Origin: Escherichia phage JK1
Sequence record: MZ436830.1
Reading direction: 5' to 3' (one strand)
Length of the DNA: 64,000 bases
Shown here: positions 5,089 to 31,792 of the stretch, piece by piece
Position numbering within the stretch: the first letter of the stretch is position 1
Layout: every line of letters begins with the position of its first letter
The notes under the pieces: generated by a model
Database searches by the model: none
Told to the model about the DNA's origin: nothing
What the model saw: only the letters and a program-made list of their open reading frames with translations
Translations under genes and position numbers: made by a program

Positions 5089-5307
5089 TTATTTCTCTAA
5101 TATAAAATAAAAATCATCATCTGTCAAATGATACCTGTAATTTAATTCTACACCATTAGATTTAAAAGCGGTATCATACGGATTTTCTGGATCAATATCA
5201 ATGTCAAGAGCTAAAACTTCCCTGAGATACATTTTAAGTAAATAGGGAATAGCTTCAACTTCAGGTATTTCTTCCAAGAATCCGGAGAGGTTAATCGTTA
5301 GCCTCAT
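5089..5307 (-). CDS. Hypothetical small acidic protein
   Basis: 72 aa ORF, tightly packed after the preceding ORF. Confidence 0.4.
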
Positions 5308-5848
5308 ATAAAAAATCCAAACTAGGAGAATCGTCTACAACACTTTTCTTTTCAGCCCCCGGTGTTCTATAGGTTGATTCTTCGTAATGCGTCATTTTAT
5401 CGTAGATGTCTTGAATAAAAGTTTCATCTACTAACGCAACCATATCGTCGTCACGACTGTCATAGACATTGTGAACGAAGTAACTATATTTCTTTGCAAC
5501 TTCCTTACGTTCTTTTTTAATACGCTGGACGAATGCATTAAAACAAGCTTGAGTTATATACGCATGTGGGTTTTTATATTTCGTTTCATCAAAATTATGA
5601 AGCCCCTTAATAGAAGCTTCTATACCATCTGCAATCATTTCTTGTTTCCAAGACTGGGTGTATCCTGAAAAGTTGAAACGTTTAGATAAGCCTTCTGCAA
5701 TAAGCATAATGGCTAATCCGATAGTATCATTTTGACGAACTACTTTATTTGGGTCTTTATTATTTGCTAATTCTGTTTTCCAATCAATAATAGCTTGTAA
5801 AAGCTCTTTATTGTTTACGTAATTATATTTAGGCTTAGTTTCTGACAT
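5291..5848 (-). CDS. 55: Late-transcription sigma factor gp55
   Basis: Start taken at [24 protein letters not shown] (185 aa, as T4 gp55); ORF track extends 2 codons upstream. Confidence 0.85.
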
Positions 5849-5926
5849 TTTCACCTCTTAGCTCAATTCATAGATCTATTATATCATAATATTTGAAGAT
5901 CTATCTTAAAGCATAGAGAATATCAG

Positions 5927-6196
5927 TTATCTAAGTAAACAGTATGCTTGGAATACTTTCTCCATCATCTTTTTAAATTCATGAATATCTATATAATGAC
6001 TAGTTAGATCAGCATGATATAAAAAGTCTAAAAACTTTTCATGTGTACTAACATATTCACTTTCATTTAATTCAGAAACATGGCTTTCCCAATATCCAAC
6101 ACCAGTCTTATTTGGGAAAAATGAAATTTTCATGTATTGGTCAACATAGAAAATGCCATAATTTTCAATAGTAATAGAAATATTAATAAATTTCAT
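5927..6196 (-). CDS. Hypothetical protein (55.x region)
   Basis: 89 aa ORF. Confidence 0.4.
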   Translation of the reverse strand: MKFINISITIENYGIFYVDQYMKISFFPNKTGVGYWESHVSELNESEYVSTHEKFLDFLYHADLTSHYIDIHEFKKMMEKVFQAYCLLR

Positions 6197-8866: not shown

Positions 8867-10680
8867 TGGTGTTTAACCCTATGCATGATTTCTTTATTTT
8901 TACCGAGATTAAATCCGCGTTCGTTTGGATTTCCCAAATAACCACATGTTCTTCTTATGGTGTTCATCTTTTTAGGATCAGTTTCTCCACAAATAGAACA
9001 AACAAATCCGTTTTCAGTAGGAGTCATTTCATGGGTACTTCCACATGTAAAACATTTATCTACTGGCATATTAACACCAAAATAATCTAAATGTTGTGCA
9101 GCATAATCCCATACGGCCTCAAGACCTTTCAAGTTATTTTTCATATCAGGAAGTTCAACATAAGAAATGTGACCACCTGTCGCAATGAAATGATATGGCG
9201 CTTCACGAGAAATCTTTTCAAACGGAGTAATATTTTCTTCTACTGAAACGTGGAAACTGTTAGTGTACCAGCCTTTATCGGTAACATCTTTTACACTTCC
9301 ATATTTTTCTGTATCAAGTTTACAGAAGCGATAACAAAGGTTTTCAGCAGGAGTCGAATATAAACTAAAAGCAAATCCAGTTCTTTCAGTCCACTGTTTA
9401 AGATGAGCATTCATTTTAGTTAAAATTTCTTGTCCAATATCACGACCGACAAGAATATTCAATTCGTGAATACCAATGTATCCTAGGGACACTGAACTTC
9501 TACCGTTTTTAAATAACTCAATTATGTCGTCATCAGGTTTAAGACGAACCCCGAATGCACCTTCTTGGTAAAGAATAGGAGCAACAGTAGCTTTAACTCC
9601 TTTTAAGGAACTAATTCTACACATCAATGCTTCAAAACACAGATCCATTCGTTCATTGAACAATTCAACAAATTTCTGTTCATTGAATTGTGTTCCAATA
9701 TAAGAATCTAACGCGATGCGAGGAAGATTCAATGTTACAACACCAAGATTATTACGTCCATCAAGAATTTCATTACCGGTCGAATCTTTCCATACGCTCA
9801 AGAAACTACGGCATCCCATCGGAGAAACAGGAACAGATGAACCAGTGATAGCTTTATTGTTCTTAGCCGAAATGATGTCAGGATACATTCTTTTGCTTGC
9901 GCACTCTAAAGCAAGCTGCTTAATATCATAGTTCGGGTCGTCTTTATAAAGATTAACACCTTCTTCAACGAACATAACAAGCTTAGGGAAAATAGGAGTT
10001 ATCCCATCACGACCAAGACCTTTAATACGATTTTTCAGAATTGCTTTCTGAATCATTCGTTCAGTCCAGTCAGTTCCCGTACCAAATGTAATTGTTACAA
10101 AAGGCGTTTGTCCGTTTGAACTAAAGAGAGTATTTACTTCATATTCATAAGCTTGGAATGCATCGTATACGTCTTTTTCTGTTTTAGATTGAGCATAATT
10201 CAATGCATCAGCGATTTGCCATTTTTCTGCATCCTCAATATGTTTTGCATAGGTGCGTTTAACATAAGGAGAAAGTACTTTATCTACATTAGCAAAAGTC
10301 GTTCCGCCGTATTGGTGAGAAGCAACCTGTGCAGTAATTTGTGCCATAATTGCAGTAGCAACACCGATTGATTTAGGAGTTTCAATCTGTGCATTACCAA
10401 GCTTAAATCCGTTCTCAAGCATTCCTTTTAAATCTACTAAACAGCAATTAGTAAATGGAAGAGCAGGGGAATAATCAATATCATGGAAATGGATAATTCC
10501 GCTTTCATGAGCTTTCATAATAAAAGACGGGACCATATTTTTGGCAATGTGTTTAGACACAATACCAGCCATAAGGTCCCGTTGAGTTGGAAAAACACGA
10601 GAATCTTTATTAGCATTCTCGTTTAAAAGGTCTTTATTAGTTTTATGAATCAATCCTTCAATTTCTTTTTCAATTGTCAT
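8863..10680 (-). CDS. nrdD: Anaerobic ribonucleoside-triphosphate reductase, uninterrupted
   Basis: 605 aa continuous ORF; C-terminal glycyl-radical motif RRTCGYLG and Zn-ribbon CFTCGS..CSICGE. Confidence 0.9.
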   Translation of the reverse strand: MTIEKEIEGLIHKTNKDLLNENANKDSRVFPTQRDLMAGIVSKHIAKNMVPSFIMKAHESGIIHFHDIDYSPALPFTNCCLVDLKGMLENGFKLGNAQIETPKSIGVATAIMAQITAQVASHQYGGTTFANVDKVLSPYVKRTYAKHIEDAEKWQIADALNYAQSKTEKDVYDAFQAYEYEVNTLFSSNGQTPFVTITFGTGTDWTERMIQKAILKNRIKGLGRDGITPIFPKLVMFVEEGVNLYKDDPNYDIKQLALECASKRMYPDIISAKNNKAITGSSVPVSPMGCRSFLSVWKDSTGNEILDGRNNLGVVTLNLPRIALDSYIGTQFNEQKFVELFNERMDLCFEALMCRISSLKGVKATVAPILYQEGAFGVRLKPDDDIIELFKNGRSSVSLGYIGIHELNILVGRDIGQEILTKMNAHLKQWTERTGFAFSLYSTPAENLCYRFCKLDTEKYGSVKDVTDKGWYTNSFHVSVEENITPFEKISREAPYHFIATGGHISYVELPDMKNNLKGLEAVWDYAAQHLDYFGVNMPVDKCFTCGSTHEMTPTENGFVCSICGETDPKKMNTIRRTCGYLGNPNERGFNLGKNKEIMHRVKHQ

Positions 10681-24512: not shown

Positions 24513-25094
24513 CTAACCGAGCTTTTTAGTTAATTCATTCCAATGTTTTCTACACAAAGAAACATAAATTTCATCACCAATACAGATTTGATTACCTTCT
24601 TTAACTGGTGTTCCATCTTCCATTAATCGAGCTGTCATAATCGCTTTTTTACCACAATGACAAACTGCTTTTAGTTCAATAAGTTTATCTGCAATCGCTA
24701 AAAGTTCTTTAGAACCTTCAAACAATTTTCCAGCGAAATCAGTCCTTAATCCATAAGCCATAACAGGAACATTATATGTATCAACAATTCGGCTCAATTG
24801 ATGCACTTGTTCAGTTTTTAAAAACTGAGCTTCATCTACAAATACGCAATGAATATCTTTTTGTGCTTCAGCCCATTTATAGAACTCGAAAATATCCATA
24901 TCATCTGTAATAATATTCGCTTCCTGTTTAATTCCAATGCGAGAAACAACTTCACAGACAGAATCGCGAGTATCAATAGCAGGCTTAAGAACTAATACAC
25001 TCATTCCACGTTCTTTATAATTATGTGCAGCAGTCAAAAGAGAAGCAGATTTTCCAGCATTCATTGCTGCATAAGTAAAAATTAAACTCGCCAT
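24513..25094 (-). CDS. tk: Thymidine kinase
   Basis: 193 aa; P-loop AMNAGKS; C-terminal Cys cluster CHCGKK..C..C. Confidence 0.9.
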   Translation of the reverse strand: MASLIFTYAAMNAGKSASLLTAAHNYKERGMSVLVLKPAIDTRDSVCEVVSRIGIKQEANIITDDMDIFEFYKWAEAQKDIHCVFVDEAQFLKTEQVHQLSRIVDTYNVPVMAYGLRTDFAGKLFEGSKELLAIADKLIELKAVCHCGKKAIMTARLMEDGTPVKEGNQICIGDEIYVSLCRKHWNELTKKLG

Positions 25095-28271: not shown

Positions 28272-28485
28272 ATTTGACTTCCTCACCAGTACATAAATCG
28301 TATTCAACTAAACGAATAGGTTCATGAATGCCATATCCCTGAACAGAAATTTCTGTAGTAGGATAAATTCCATCAATATCACCCATATTCCACGCTTCGT
28401 TAAATTGCTGTTCGCCTGAATTACTAAACCACTCGGCGAAAGCATTTAGCACATCTTTAGAACCTTCAATAATTATCTTTGCCAT
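28264..28485 (-). CDS. Hypothetical small protein
   Basis: 73 aa; TAATG overlap with the upstream gene. Confidence 0.45.
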   Translation of the reverse strand: MAKIIIEGSKDVLNAFAEWFSNSGEQQFNEAWNMGDIDGIYPTTEISVQGYGIHEPIRLVEYDLCTGEEVKYD

Positions 28486-28847
28486 TACAAACTCTCGGTG
28501 AAGGTACGAGCGATAACGTCGCGCTGCTGTTCCGGAGTCAGAGAGTTAAAGCGAACTGCATAACCGGATACACGGATGGTCAGCTGCGGATATTTTTCCG
28601 GATGCTTAACTGCATCTTCCAGAGTTTCACGACGCAGAACGTTAACGTTCAGGTGTTGACCACCTTCAATTTTAACTGTAGGCTGTGGCTCAATTTCAAT
28701 TTCACGGGCATGCAAACCGTAGAAAATTTCTGGGTCTACAAAAGAGTCCTCTTTAAAGGTTTTAGAGACAATAATTCGTGCTTGAATACCATCTTCAAAA
28801 TAAATAGTGCCTTTATGTGTGCCTTCAAGAATTTGATATGCTTTCAT
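28485..28847 (-). CDS. Autonomous glycyl-radical cofactor (GrcA/YfiD-like)
   Basis: 120 aa; C-terminal glycyl-radical motif [25 protein letters not shown]. Confidence 0.8.
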
Positions 28848-28854
28848 ATAAACC

Positions 28855-29184
28855 TCAATTAGAAAATAAATTTATCCAAGATTGTTCTTTAATTAAAAAT
28901 GGCTCAGAATCATATGCCATTAAACTTTGGGTAATTAATCCTTTAAAAGGTCCATCAATAAATTCCATGGTAAAATATGGAATTTTATTCATTAGCCGTG
29001 CATTAGGAGCAGTGCACAAAACTCTGCATCCTTTGAATATACCTTTTTGTAATTTGTATTGCTTGGGATAAAATTCGCTCAAAGTGTTATTATTTGCCAA
29101 AATTTCAAAATGATTCACCAATTTATTTTTAATAGTTTTTGGCGAAAAATAAAGATATTCGAAAAGCTGAGTGTCTGTCATCAT
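28855..29184 (-). CDS. Hypothetical protein, translationally coupled to the upstream P-loop ORF
   Basis: Start MMTDTQ at 29184 (ATGATGA overlap with the upstream stop); ORF track 28855..29235. Confidence 0.45.
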
Positions 29185-29771
29185 TGCATTCCAATCACAA
29201 AAAATTGAGGACGAGTAATACCACCAATGCAACATTTACTATTACAGCAGTAGTGTACAGTGTCAATATGGACGCTATAAATCTTATCCATATCAGGAGA
29301 TTTGACAGGCTCATCAATTATATACAAAATTCGCGAAAGCGATAAACCTCTGAACTTACTTCCTTTATTACCAATAAAACTGCGCACAGAATCAGTAAAT
29401 AAACGAAAACGTATATCATCATTAGAATAACGCGAAAATTCCTTTTTAATGTTATTTGCAGAAATTTTAGCGTAAGCTGAAGTATTAGAAAGAACAATAA
29501 CTGTTCCGCCATCATACAGCCAATTAGCAGCAAAGTTAGTCACAGCAATTGATTTACCAGATTGACGTCCACCATCTAGTCGAAGTGTACAATATTCTTT
29601 AAATAAATGCGACGAATCAGGTACATAAAATCCACTATTACAAATTTCTTCTACTCTAGCATCAGAATGGTGTGTAAAAGCATTCATCAGGGATAGATAA
29701 GGACCAGTTAAAAATGTTCTCATTTTATTCTCTCTAAATTTGGGCCATTCCGTGGCGCATGAATTGTCCAT
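29181..29771 (-). CDS. Small P-loop NTPase
   Basis: 196 aa; Walker A LDGGRQSGKS, Walker B-like LYIIDEP. Confidence 0.5.
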   Translation of the reverse strand: MDNSCATEWPKFRENKMRTFLTGPYLSLMNAFTHHSDARVEEICNSGFYVPDSSHLFKEYCTLRLDGGRQSGKSIAVTNFAANWLYDGGTVIVLSNTSAYAKISANNIKKEFSRYSNDDIRFRLFTDSVRSFIGNKGSKFRGLSLSRILYIIDEPVKSPDMDKIYSVHIDTVHYCCNSKCCIGGITRPQFFVIGMQ

Positions 29772-29864
29772 TTCTGTATTTACCCATTACCGCACTCAGG
29801 CTCGACCTTATCACAGGTTGGCGGGAATCCCTCACAGAATCATGAGGTCCAGCTTGTTCCCATA

Positions 29865-30338
29865 TTATTTGAACGATTTAACGTACTGAATAGAACCTTT
29901 ACTATTCACAAAGGCAATTTTACCATTTTTATTATACATGGTAGCAGTACGTTGATAACCATAAGTTTGTTTACCAGATTGATAACCAACTAATGCGAAA
30001 TTATCTTCGCCCATTTTATTCTGTTTAGCGCGAATGCGTTCATGACCATGTGCCATAAGAACCTTAGCATCACCGGTTGCAATGGATCGACGAGTTTTTT
30101 CATCTTCAACTGTATTAACAAAGTCGTCAAATGAATCAAATTTAGCATGAGATTTATTATACAGTTTTCCATCTACTGCATAATTATATCCCTGTACATC
30201 CATCTCAACTTCTGTACCATCATCCAATACAGCAGTGATTTTTTGACCTTTTTTAAATTTCAAAAGATCAGTAAAAGATTCAGCAATAATTTGAGAATTA
30301 ATAGCTGCTTCAGTGATAAATTCTTGATATGTTTTCAT
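29865..30338 (-). CDS. Internal-protein-like ORF with capsid-targeting-sequence (CTS)-like N-terminus
   Basis: 157 aa; N-terminus MKTYQEFITEA matches the T4 internal-protein CTS (MKTYQEFIAE) with an I-x-E protease-type site; immediately downstream of denV. Confidence 0.6.
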   Translation of the reverse strand: MKTYQEFITEAAINSQIIAESFTDLLKFKKGQKITAVLDDGTEVEMDVQGYNYAVDGKLYNKSHAKFDSFDDFVNTVEDEKTRRSIATGDAKVLMAHGHERIRAKQNKMGEDNFALVGYQSGKQTYGYQRTATMYNKNGKIAFVNSKGSIQYVKSFK

Positions 30339-30347
30339 ATGTTTCCT

Positions 30348-30764
30348 TTAAATGTAAATATTTTTACCGTAATACTTATACCAATGTGGTTTCATTAAAA
30401 TTTTTTCATCAAGTCGTTGTTGACTCAATTTAATAGCTGATTTGCATGGATTATAATCATTTTTCCATTCTATTGGAATATCGCTGATGTCAGGAACTTC
30501 AGTATCTTTTATACTGAACCCGCGTTTTAAGCATTCCGTTATAATGTCTAATTGACGCTTTCGCAAAAATTCTAACTTATCGTAAAAGAACGTAACATGA
30601 CCAGAACCTAAAATAAACTCGGAAGATATTTTAAAATCTTTAACGCGCTTACCGTTTGCCACATGCTTACGAACTATACCAAAAACACGTGGCAATTCAC
30701 GATATTCTGCAATTAAATGCTGATCAGTAAGTTCAGATACTAAAGTCAAATTAATACGAGTCAT
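30348..30764 (-). CDS. denV: Endonuclease V (pyrimidine dimer DNA glycosylase)
   Basis: 138 aa; [37 protein letters not shown] matches T4 DenV as I recall it. Confidence 0.9.

Positions 30765-30823: not shown

Positions 30824-31792
<969 letters not shown>

Follow-up and report, generated by a model that had tools for sequence, protein, structure and literature searches.

The locus described here lies on the minus strand of a 64,000-nucleotide (nt) stretch of Escherichia phage JK1 (MZ436830.1), which is called the window and numbered from its first letter. It comprises two adjacent open reading frames (ORFs), vs.8 (29181..29771 in its longest form, 196 amino acids [aa], stop included) and vs.7 (28855..29184, 109 aa plus stop), and a conserved, structured RNA-like element of 122 nt (29741..29862) between vs.8 and the gene upstream of it. 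The minus strand carries every gene of the block, and coordinates below refer to it unless the plus strand is named. The two ORFs are orthologues of phage T4 vs.8 and vs.7, as they are named in RefSeq T4 (NC_000866) and in well-annotated relatives, with the product given as 'hypothetical protein'. The locus is that of a Tequatrovirus (T4-like): over the 1.9 kb around the pair, identity to Escherichia phage vB_Eco_TB37 was 98.9%, and the region was matched at a coverage of at least 80% by 309 phage records. An earlier reading of the DNA, made without database searches (the sequence-only reading), had described an uncharacterised P-loop nucleoside triphosphatase (NTPase) coupled to a 109-aa partner, and had proposed that presence and absence be mapped across related phages. 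Searched by tblastn, Vs.8 was found in 1009 phage records and Vs.7 in 929, T4-like without exception. The pair is thus a conserved and annotated one in T4, and 'uncharacterised' held for its function: a full-text search of the literature returned no paper on the function of vs.7 or vs.8 or on the sequence of the element, save the gene tables in the CRISPRi-ART supplement.

Residue numbers in Vs.8 follow the 196-aa ORF. Both strings named in the sequence-only reading were present, the Walker A string LDGGRQSGKS at residues 65-74 (P-loop GGRQSGKS, residues 67-74, 29550..29573) and the Walker B-like LYIIDEP (LYIIDE, residues 149-154, 29310..29327, with Glu154 as the putative catalytic glutamate). 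Conservation was assessed in 26 Vs.8 homologues from a search of 5.8 billion proteins, with 37-93% identity to the window protein and the Walker A consensus GGRQ[ST]GK[ST]. Residues D66, G67, G68, R69, Q70, G72, K73, R141, G142, I151, I152, E154, P155, F190, F191, G194, and Q196 were invariant in all 26, and D153 was conserved in more than 90%. Since the Walker motifs are invariant or nearly so among homologues down to 37% identity, they are under selection and not due to chance. The Arg141-Gly142 pair (29346..29351), 12 residues before the Walker B aspartate, is a candidate arginine finger. The four invariant residues at the end of the protein belong to the C-terminal strand FFVIGMQ (29184..29204), the last beta strand of the structural model (E189-193).

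Vs.8 matched the PHROG family phrog_1488 (unknown function) at 3.5e-78 over profile positions 2-177 of 177, and all 26 homologues matched it as well. When the homologues were scanned individually, sub-threshold matches were consistent: AAA_14 in 25/26, Terminase_6N in 22/26 (best 5.4e-5), and AAA_30 in 17/26. The PHROG large terminase family (phrog_2) was matched by 25/26 (best 1.2e-6), the other consistent PHROG match being phrog_2586. The family profile was aligned by hhalign to gp17 of this phage (60883..62715, plus strand) over 103 columns, Walker A through Walker B (E 1.4e-4), pairing GGRQSGKS with SRQLGKT, R141-G142 with R245-G246, and LYIIDE with MIYIDE; the next-best Walker A protein in the window (24513..25094), used as a control, aligned over 29 columns only (E 6e-3). 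Vs.8 has both the terminase-type P-loop (R-Q before G-K-S/T) and an arginine about 10-12 residues ahead of Walker B.

The AlphaFold2 (AF2) model of Vs.8 (predicted local distance difference test score 80.5, predicted template modelling score 0.79) was a single domain with a RecA-like alpha/beta core, and its Foldseek matches included the P74-26 terminase ATPase, RecD, and KaiC. In the sequence and the model, neither a C-terminal helical lid nor an LSGGQ motif was found, a glutamate follows Walker B, and the top structural matches contained no kinase. The sequence-only reading had left classification (kinase, AAA-like, or ABC-like) to profile searches; sequence and model support the assignment of Vs.8 as a P-loop ATPase of the additional-strand, conserved-glutamate (ASCE)/RecA-like class, of the terminase/helicase kind, and not as a kinase, AAA+, or ABC protein.

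The closeness to terminases has to be read with some care. The hhalign probability between the Vs.8 family and gp17 was just 53%, no curated-family threshold was reached (the window protein scored 12.5 bits with Terminase_6N, whose cut-off is 22), and the structural comparison failed to tell terminase from helicase RecA domains. Distant relatives carry GH[ST] for GK[ST] and D[CV]A for DE, which means that ATP hydrolysis would not be universal in the wider family. By sequence comparison, the nearest relatives of Vs.8 are the ATPase domains of T4-type large terminases, all below family thresholds. Vs.8 ends at the strand after Walker B (180 aa from its probable start, see below) and lacks an ATPase lid subdomain, the C-terminal RNase H-like nuclease domain of terminases, and the two tandem RecA domains of helicases. 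As judged from sequence, Vs.8 itself is not a terminase, because it falls under the family threshold and has neither lid nor nuclease domain; lacking the lid subdomain, the nuclease domain, and the portal-binding part, it cannot be a packaging motor.

Outside these matches the family stands apart. Among 1.84 billion cluster representatives, searched exhaustively with a profile, only 72 related clusters came up, all of 66-259 aa. NCBIfam gave no match to Vs.8, and PADLOC and PDB sequence searches gave nothing significant (in PADLOC, only a weak HerA match, E 0.021). Labels such as 'Endoribonuclease RegB' and 'baseplate/tail' in some GenBank records have no profile support and were put down to annotation carry-over. 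A Pfam Toxin_19 (conotoxin) match over residues 174-194 was rejected as spurious; it is caused by the Cys-rich loop HYCCNSKCCIGG (residues 172-183, 29223..29258), which varies among close relatives, is missing from distant ones, and has low confidence in the model. A sister clade was also observed (P0072, P0081, P0085, P0087, P0101, P0102, P0105, and P0108), with proteins of 150-180 aa, a loop of the form S/A-R-R/Q-S/T-G-H-S/T, and hhhD-C/V-A in the Walker B position; the loop looks like a conserved non-canonical P-loop.

The 196-aa ORF reported in the sequence-only reading exists, and its N-terminal part is probably not made. Homologues share the start M-(R/K)-(T)-F-L-T, which corresponds to Met17 of the ORF. 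Many relatives have an in-frame stop 3-4 codons ahead of this methionine, and the reading frame of the DNA 5' of it, taken relative to that of vs.8, is 0, 1, or 2 depending on the phage. Residues 1-18 of the 196-aa form were disordered in the AF2 model, and a purine-rich GAGAGAA precedes the start at 29723. Given the upstream stops, the shifting frames, and the disordered residues, translation of the first 16 codons (29724..29771) is very unlikely, and the product is taken to be a 180-aa protein plus stop encoded at 29181..29723, the predicted single-domain RecA-like ATPase; the match to phrog_1488 and the identity to T4 Vs.8 are in keeping with this coding sequence. The 16-codon extension overlaps the 3' part of the RNA-like element, and its conservation is at the nucleotide level, not at the protein level. 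In RefSeq T4, vs.8 is annotated as 219 aa (NC_000866 64253..64912; NP_049732) and begins inside the element; the comparative evidence supports 180 aa over this product.

Vs.7 starts with MMTDTQ and matched phrog_2049 over the full length of the profile (7.9e-54); a precomputed table assigns every Vs.7 homologue to Pfam PF26834 (Phage_T4_Y06J, a family that takes its name from the uncharacterised protein of T4). The fold is predicted to be a helical hairpin, formed by two N-terminal helices, plus an SH3-like barrel. At the junction of the two genes (GGA ATG CAA TGA / ATG ATG ACA), vs.7 opens with two ATGs in tandem, the first of which shares bases with the TGA stop of vs.8 (29181-29183; overlap ATGA, 29181..29184). 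This overlap (ATGATGA), to which the sequence-only reading had drawn attention, was seen in the junction sequence and is a 4-nt overlap also annotated in Tequatrovirus (T4), Dhakavirus (JS10), Karamvirus (CC31), and Klebsiella T4-likes (Roth17). Gene order, adjacency, and the tandem-ATG overlap are retained across these four genera, with proteins that are only 30-50% identical, and vs.8 and vs.7 were found together in about 930 of about 1010 genomes.

From the overlap a two-gene unit had been deduced, and here the evidence is divided. Against such a unit stand the general frequency of 4-nt overlaps in these genomes, with overlaps of 1-8 nt at most junctions of the block, and several phages in which the two genes are parted. 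In Yersinia phage MHG19 there is no vs.7, and vs.8 overlaps a vs.5-like gene by 4 nt. The distant T4-like MW358927 has a vs.8-like gene at the equivalent place (lysin, vs.8-like, GrcA, denV, regB, vs, tk), and its overlapping 86-aa neighbour is not Vs.7-like. In the distant T4-like contig L030, a vs.8-like gene lies between topoisomerase genes and rIIA, again without vs.7, and in phage T2 an intact vs.7 stands beside a dead vs.8. With overlaps of this kind being the rule here, and with vs.8 also present where vs.7 is missing, the overlap says little in favour of a dedicated two-gene unit; the sequences taken together nevertheless suggest that vs.8 and vs.7 probably are a dedicated pair. In some lineages, a vs.5-like gene is fused to or has moved beside vs.8 or vs.7 (L007 3019..3243, MHG19; L019 8563..9054).

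Ratios of nonsynonymous to synonymous substitution rates against close relatives were 0.13-0.24 for vs.8 and 0.11-0.34 for vs.7; both genes are real and under purifying selection. In T2, vs.8 is a pseudogene: two indels (net -5 and -2 nt) shift its reading frame, the Walker A DNA is still there but out of frame, and the same split was found in two independently deposited records (L071 648..1183, AP018813; L072 1143..1678, PV648364). In CRISPRi-ART, a genome-wide dCas13d knockdown of T4, the supplementary tables list vs.7 at -0.11 and vs.8 at 0.37, both as 'Not Fit' (PMC11879866). A reservation applies to the second value, as the vs.8 guides listed in these tables (64887-64937; PMC11879866) target the start as mis-annotated, which lies about 120 nt 5' of the conserved start. 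They sit on the element and not on the real ribosome-binding site, so the vs.8 knockdown result is weak evidence. In the laboratory, both genes are dispensable accessory genes, and the natural loss in T2, together with the location in an accessory block, points to a host-specific accessory role.

In the direction of transcription, the block reads e, denV, ip gene, a gap of 141 nt, vs.8, vs.7, and a GrcA-like gene. The lysozyme gene e occupies 30824..31318 and denV 30348..30764. The ip gene (29865..30338) encodes an internal virion protein (Ip4/DUF7412; Pfam DUF7412 5.7e-96; phrog_3155, labelled 'internal virion protein') whose product begins with MKTYQEFITEAA, the capsid-targeting sequence. 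The pair had been placed immediately downstream of this gene in the sequence-only reading; the ip gene is indeed the next gene upstream, with denV beyond it, but the 141 nt between are a conserved non-coding stretch. Directly 3' of the pair lies a gene for a GrcA/YfiD-like autonomous glycyl-radical cofactor (28485..28847; Gly_radical 2.8e-18), named vs.6 in relatives. The surrounding denV-regB block includes an anti-defence gene, vs.4, which is Acb2 (Pfam Acb2_Tad1_hairpin).

The RNA-like element fills most of the gap between the ip gene and vs.8, which has a G+C content of about 50% (0.52 over the 122 nt) and is far better conserved than the flanking genes. The window copy was scored at 81 bits (E 4e-19) by R2, a covariance model with a hand-specified structure, which replaced R1, a model built on an automatic RNAalifold structure. 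A near-invariant 32-nt core, ACCUGUGAUAAGGUCGAGCCUGAGUGCGGUAA (29787..29818), occurs once in the window, where none is expected by chance. Between T4, JS10, CC31, Roth17, and MHG19 there is hardly any difference in the stretch ACCTGTAATAAGGTCGAGCCCAAGTGCGGTAA, and among the phages that share it Vs.8 is about 40-58% identical to the window protein (93% for T4 Vs.8 itself). Against locus L021, synonymous sites of vs.8 have diverged to a dS of 0.72, whereas only 8 positions are changed in the 122-nt element.

The proposed architecture is a closing helix around a hairpin, followed by a bulged helix that encloses the 32-nt core. The closing helix is GGGAA/UUCCC in T4, AAAGG/CCUUU in JS10, AAAGCU/AGCUUU in Roth17, GGGG/CCCC in rV5-like phages, and GUACC/GGUAC in Vibrio phage F96; the helix enclosing the core is CUGG/CCAG in CC31 and CGAUA/UA(A)UCG in one metagenomic copy. 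The 3' hairpin GCCA-CGGAA-UGGC (helix 6, 29744..29756), about 20 nt ahead of the vs.8 start codon, is kept in T4-like copies and absent from the rV5-like and Vibrio copies. Over 31 sequences, 94.6% of cells were paired against 80.1% in shuffles (0/500 shuffles as high), and compensatory changes were seen in 21 of 28 pairs against 9.1 expected, figures to be read with an alignment that was fitted to the model, with two hits of E ~0.8 included, and with an invariant core interior that tells nothing about its own pairing. When partner columns were slid by 1-3 positions as controls, pairing fell to 28-52%. Folded as a single sequence, the element was no more stable than its shuffles (z 0.34), so the support for the structure is comparative only.

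Other identities were considered for the element. Rfam 15 gave no match at E<=1 over the window element or the Vibrio phage locus, and none at E<=0.1 in four T4-like loci and one rV5-like locus. Searches for a tRNA or transfer-messenger RNA identity found none, and a host origin was rejected after no match was obtained in 185,579 bacterial and archaeal genomes or in 5,426 E. coli genomes. A small protein on the opposite strand (a 49-aa ORF, 29740..29889, plus strand; a similar ORF is annotated in Roth17) was rejected because the start codon is not conserved, the helix changes are compensatory and not synonymous, and copies differ in length by numbers of nucleotides that are not multiples of three. 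Between the upstream gene and vs.8, promoter and terminator signals did not rise above background.

R2 found the element in every tested T4-like locus with the core sequence; the distant T4-likes L030 and MW358927 are without it. Copies in rV5-like phages (Vequintavirus) scored 44-50 bits and lie in a non-coding gap beside a tRNA cluster, followed by a sigma-70-like promoter. The copy of Vibrio phage F96 was a weak match within about 1.4 kb without credible ORFs. Further copies were found in several small metagenomic contigs, and the core also occurs in uncultured viral contigs. As the core is present in phages that have no vs.8, the element is not merely a vs.8 operator or leader. We tentatively regard it as an undescribed class of structured phage RNA (122-145 nt), read as the N-terminus of Vs.8 in RefSeq T4; the comparative evidence makes this possible, and we hold it with some doubt. 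That the core is common to T4-like, rV5-like, and Vibrio phages suggests that it may bind a conserved ligand or protein, or be catalytic.

Several observations were made around these copies. The F96 region (L029 2000..3400), which holds a diverged copy of the core, lies beside a tRNA and a gene for an HNH endonuclease; the ORFs annotated in it, on both strands, are all tiny, and it gave no Rfam match. In rV5-like and related contigs (L008 2900..3120; L041, L046, L051, and L066), the core lies inside a longer conserved non-coding stretch, which may be part of a larger RNA, and a repeated box, AGAGGGCTTGA(T/A)AGTGC, occurs upstream of the core and, in one group, also downstream. In the Klebsiella T4-like contig L019, a full copy (10297..10440) and a partial one (9895..9983, minus strand) flank an ip gene (9958..10260) for a 100-aa capsid-targeted protein; the window, by contrast, has a single copy with the ip gene upstream of it. 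The element may therefore mark the boundaries of ip-gene cassettes. A 142-aa 'terminase-like family protein' near the element in an rV5-like phage was rejected as a relative of Vs.8, being instead the first exon of the real terminase: in L008, the large-terminase gene is seemingly split after Walker B (5257..5685 and 5673..5974; …MVCFDEG), and a sub-threshold group I intron match follows the split (40.1 bits, E 4.9e-7).

The explanation that we consider best, and on balance probable, is that the vs.8 and vs.7 orthologues form an accessory, host-specific module of a terminase-related stand-alone ATPase and an SH3-like adaptor. In such a module, Vs.8 would bind and hydrolyse ATP and work as a switch or a small motor; it would either descend from the ATPase subdomain of terminases or have a common ancestor with it. 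As a lone RecA-like domain usually receives its arginine in trans, Vs.8 would need to self-associate or to have a partner, with R141 as the candidate arginine. Vs.7 would be made by termination and reinitiation at the vs.8 stop, which would tie its amount to that of Vs.8, and its most plausible role would be that of an adaptor or regulator of the Vs.8 ATPase, presumably in a complex with it. Its surroundings, the denV-regB block, consist of accessory genes that are non-essential and for the most part early. Transcription probably runs into the module from the genes upstream, with a conserved structured leader ahead of it, and the module is probably useful in some hosts only, for host takeover or counter-defence.

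The strongest competitor, in our view unlikely but to be kept in mind, is that vs.8 and vs.7 are functionally independent and that their overlap mirrors the tight packing of T4-type early genes. The short overlaps at most junctions of the block speak for it, as do MHG19, MW358927, and L030 with vs.8 but no vs.7, and the T2 vs.7 beside its dead vs.8. Packing of this sort sits less well with adjacency, order, and a tandem-ATG overlap maintained in four genera between proteins of 30-50% identity, and with the co-occurrence of the genes in about 930 of about 1010 genomes. The remaining alternatives concern Vs.8 itself. Avs1-3 sense the large terminase, and Vs.8, whose closest relatives outside its own family are T4-type terminase ATPase domains, gp17 of the same phage among them, might be a terminase-ATPase mimic acting as a decoy or inhibitor of Avs-type STAND NTPase sensors, or as a regulator of gp17/gp16. 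The presence of Acb2 (vs.4) in the block and the dispensability of vs.8 in laboratory hosts would suit a mimic. We nevertheless find it improbable: PADLOC defence models gave no meaningful match beyond the weak HerA one, the invariant catalytic residues would be needless in a passive decoy, and a mimic made early would be expected to trigger the sensor, not to block it.

Loss of catalysis would leave Vs.8 as a P-loop fold serving as a scaffold or nucleotide sensor only. The GH[ST] loops and missing glutamate after Walker B in distant relatives, and the want of a lid or second RecA domain in Vs.8, agree with a dead enzyme, but within the Vs.8 clade the Lys, Asp, Glu, and Arg are invariant or more than 90% conserved down to 37% identity, and we rate this as quite improbable. 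A last possibility is that Vs.8 and Vs.7 are the split remnant of a superfamily 1B (SF1B; Dda/RecD-like) helicase, with Vs.8 as the 1A RecA domain and Vs.7 as an SH3-like 2B domain. It is highly improbable, as there is no second RecA domain, the helicase motifs are limited to Walker A and B, Vs.7 scores at noise level for what is a ubiquitous fold, and the R-Q signature of the P-loop indicates terminases.

The vs.8-vs.7 pair was already known in T4 as uncharacterised genes. What this analysis adds is a class assignment backed by controls, a corrected start, the natural vs.8 pseudogene of T2, and a conserved RNA-like element that current annotations translate. For the proteins the gain is modest, namely a class, a start codon, and an argument for dispensability for two of the many T4 genes to which 60 years of work have assigned no function. 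The mis-annotated start also explains why the vs.8 knockdown guides may have missed the gene. The RNA-like element may matter more, hidden as it is under a mis-annotated ORF of the best-studied phage and common to unrelated groups of virulent phages. If it is indeed a structured RNA, it would offer a new handle on phage RNA biology, and its T4-like copies would also act as the leader that governs vs.8-vs.7 expression.

Among known systems, the element resembles structured phage mRNA leaders, processing sites, and riboswitch-like cis-regulators in that it lies on the sense strand, has compensated helices, starts directly after the preceding stop codon, and ends about 20 nt ahead of the vs.8 ribosome-binding site. 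Unlike them, it has no Rfam 15 match, and its core occurs in unrelated phage groups, where it is not beside vs.8 and is followed by a promoter. Vs.8 shares 7-17% identity with the RecA1 domains of SF2 and SF1B helicases (Mfd, DEAD-box, RIG-I, RecD/Dda), but it is a single-domain protein without the second RecA domain, motifs Ia-VI, or the Q motif. Compared with the ATPase domain of gp17 (Terminase_6N; PDB 2O0H), Vs.8 is small (about 180 aa against 610 aa for gp17) and lacks the lid and the RNase H-like nuclease; it also lacks a YQ adenine-binding motif at the expected spacing, and GMQ stands where the coupling motif has TTT. The vs.8 gene also stands among accessory, presumably early genes, and the terminase among late packaging genes. 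The closest counterparts are those of T4. T4 Vs.8 (NP_049732, PHROG 1488) is 93% identical over the 180-aa core, lies likewise between the denV/ip genes and vs.7 with an equal overlap, and differs in its RefSeq product of 219 aa against the 180 aa supported here. T4 Vs.7 (NP_049731; PF26834; PHROG 2049), also of 109 aa, is 97% identical and has the same tandem-ATG start on the vs.8 stop, with no material difference from the protein in the window.

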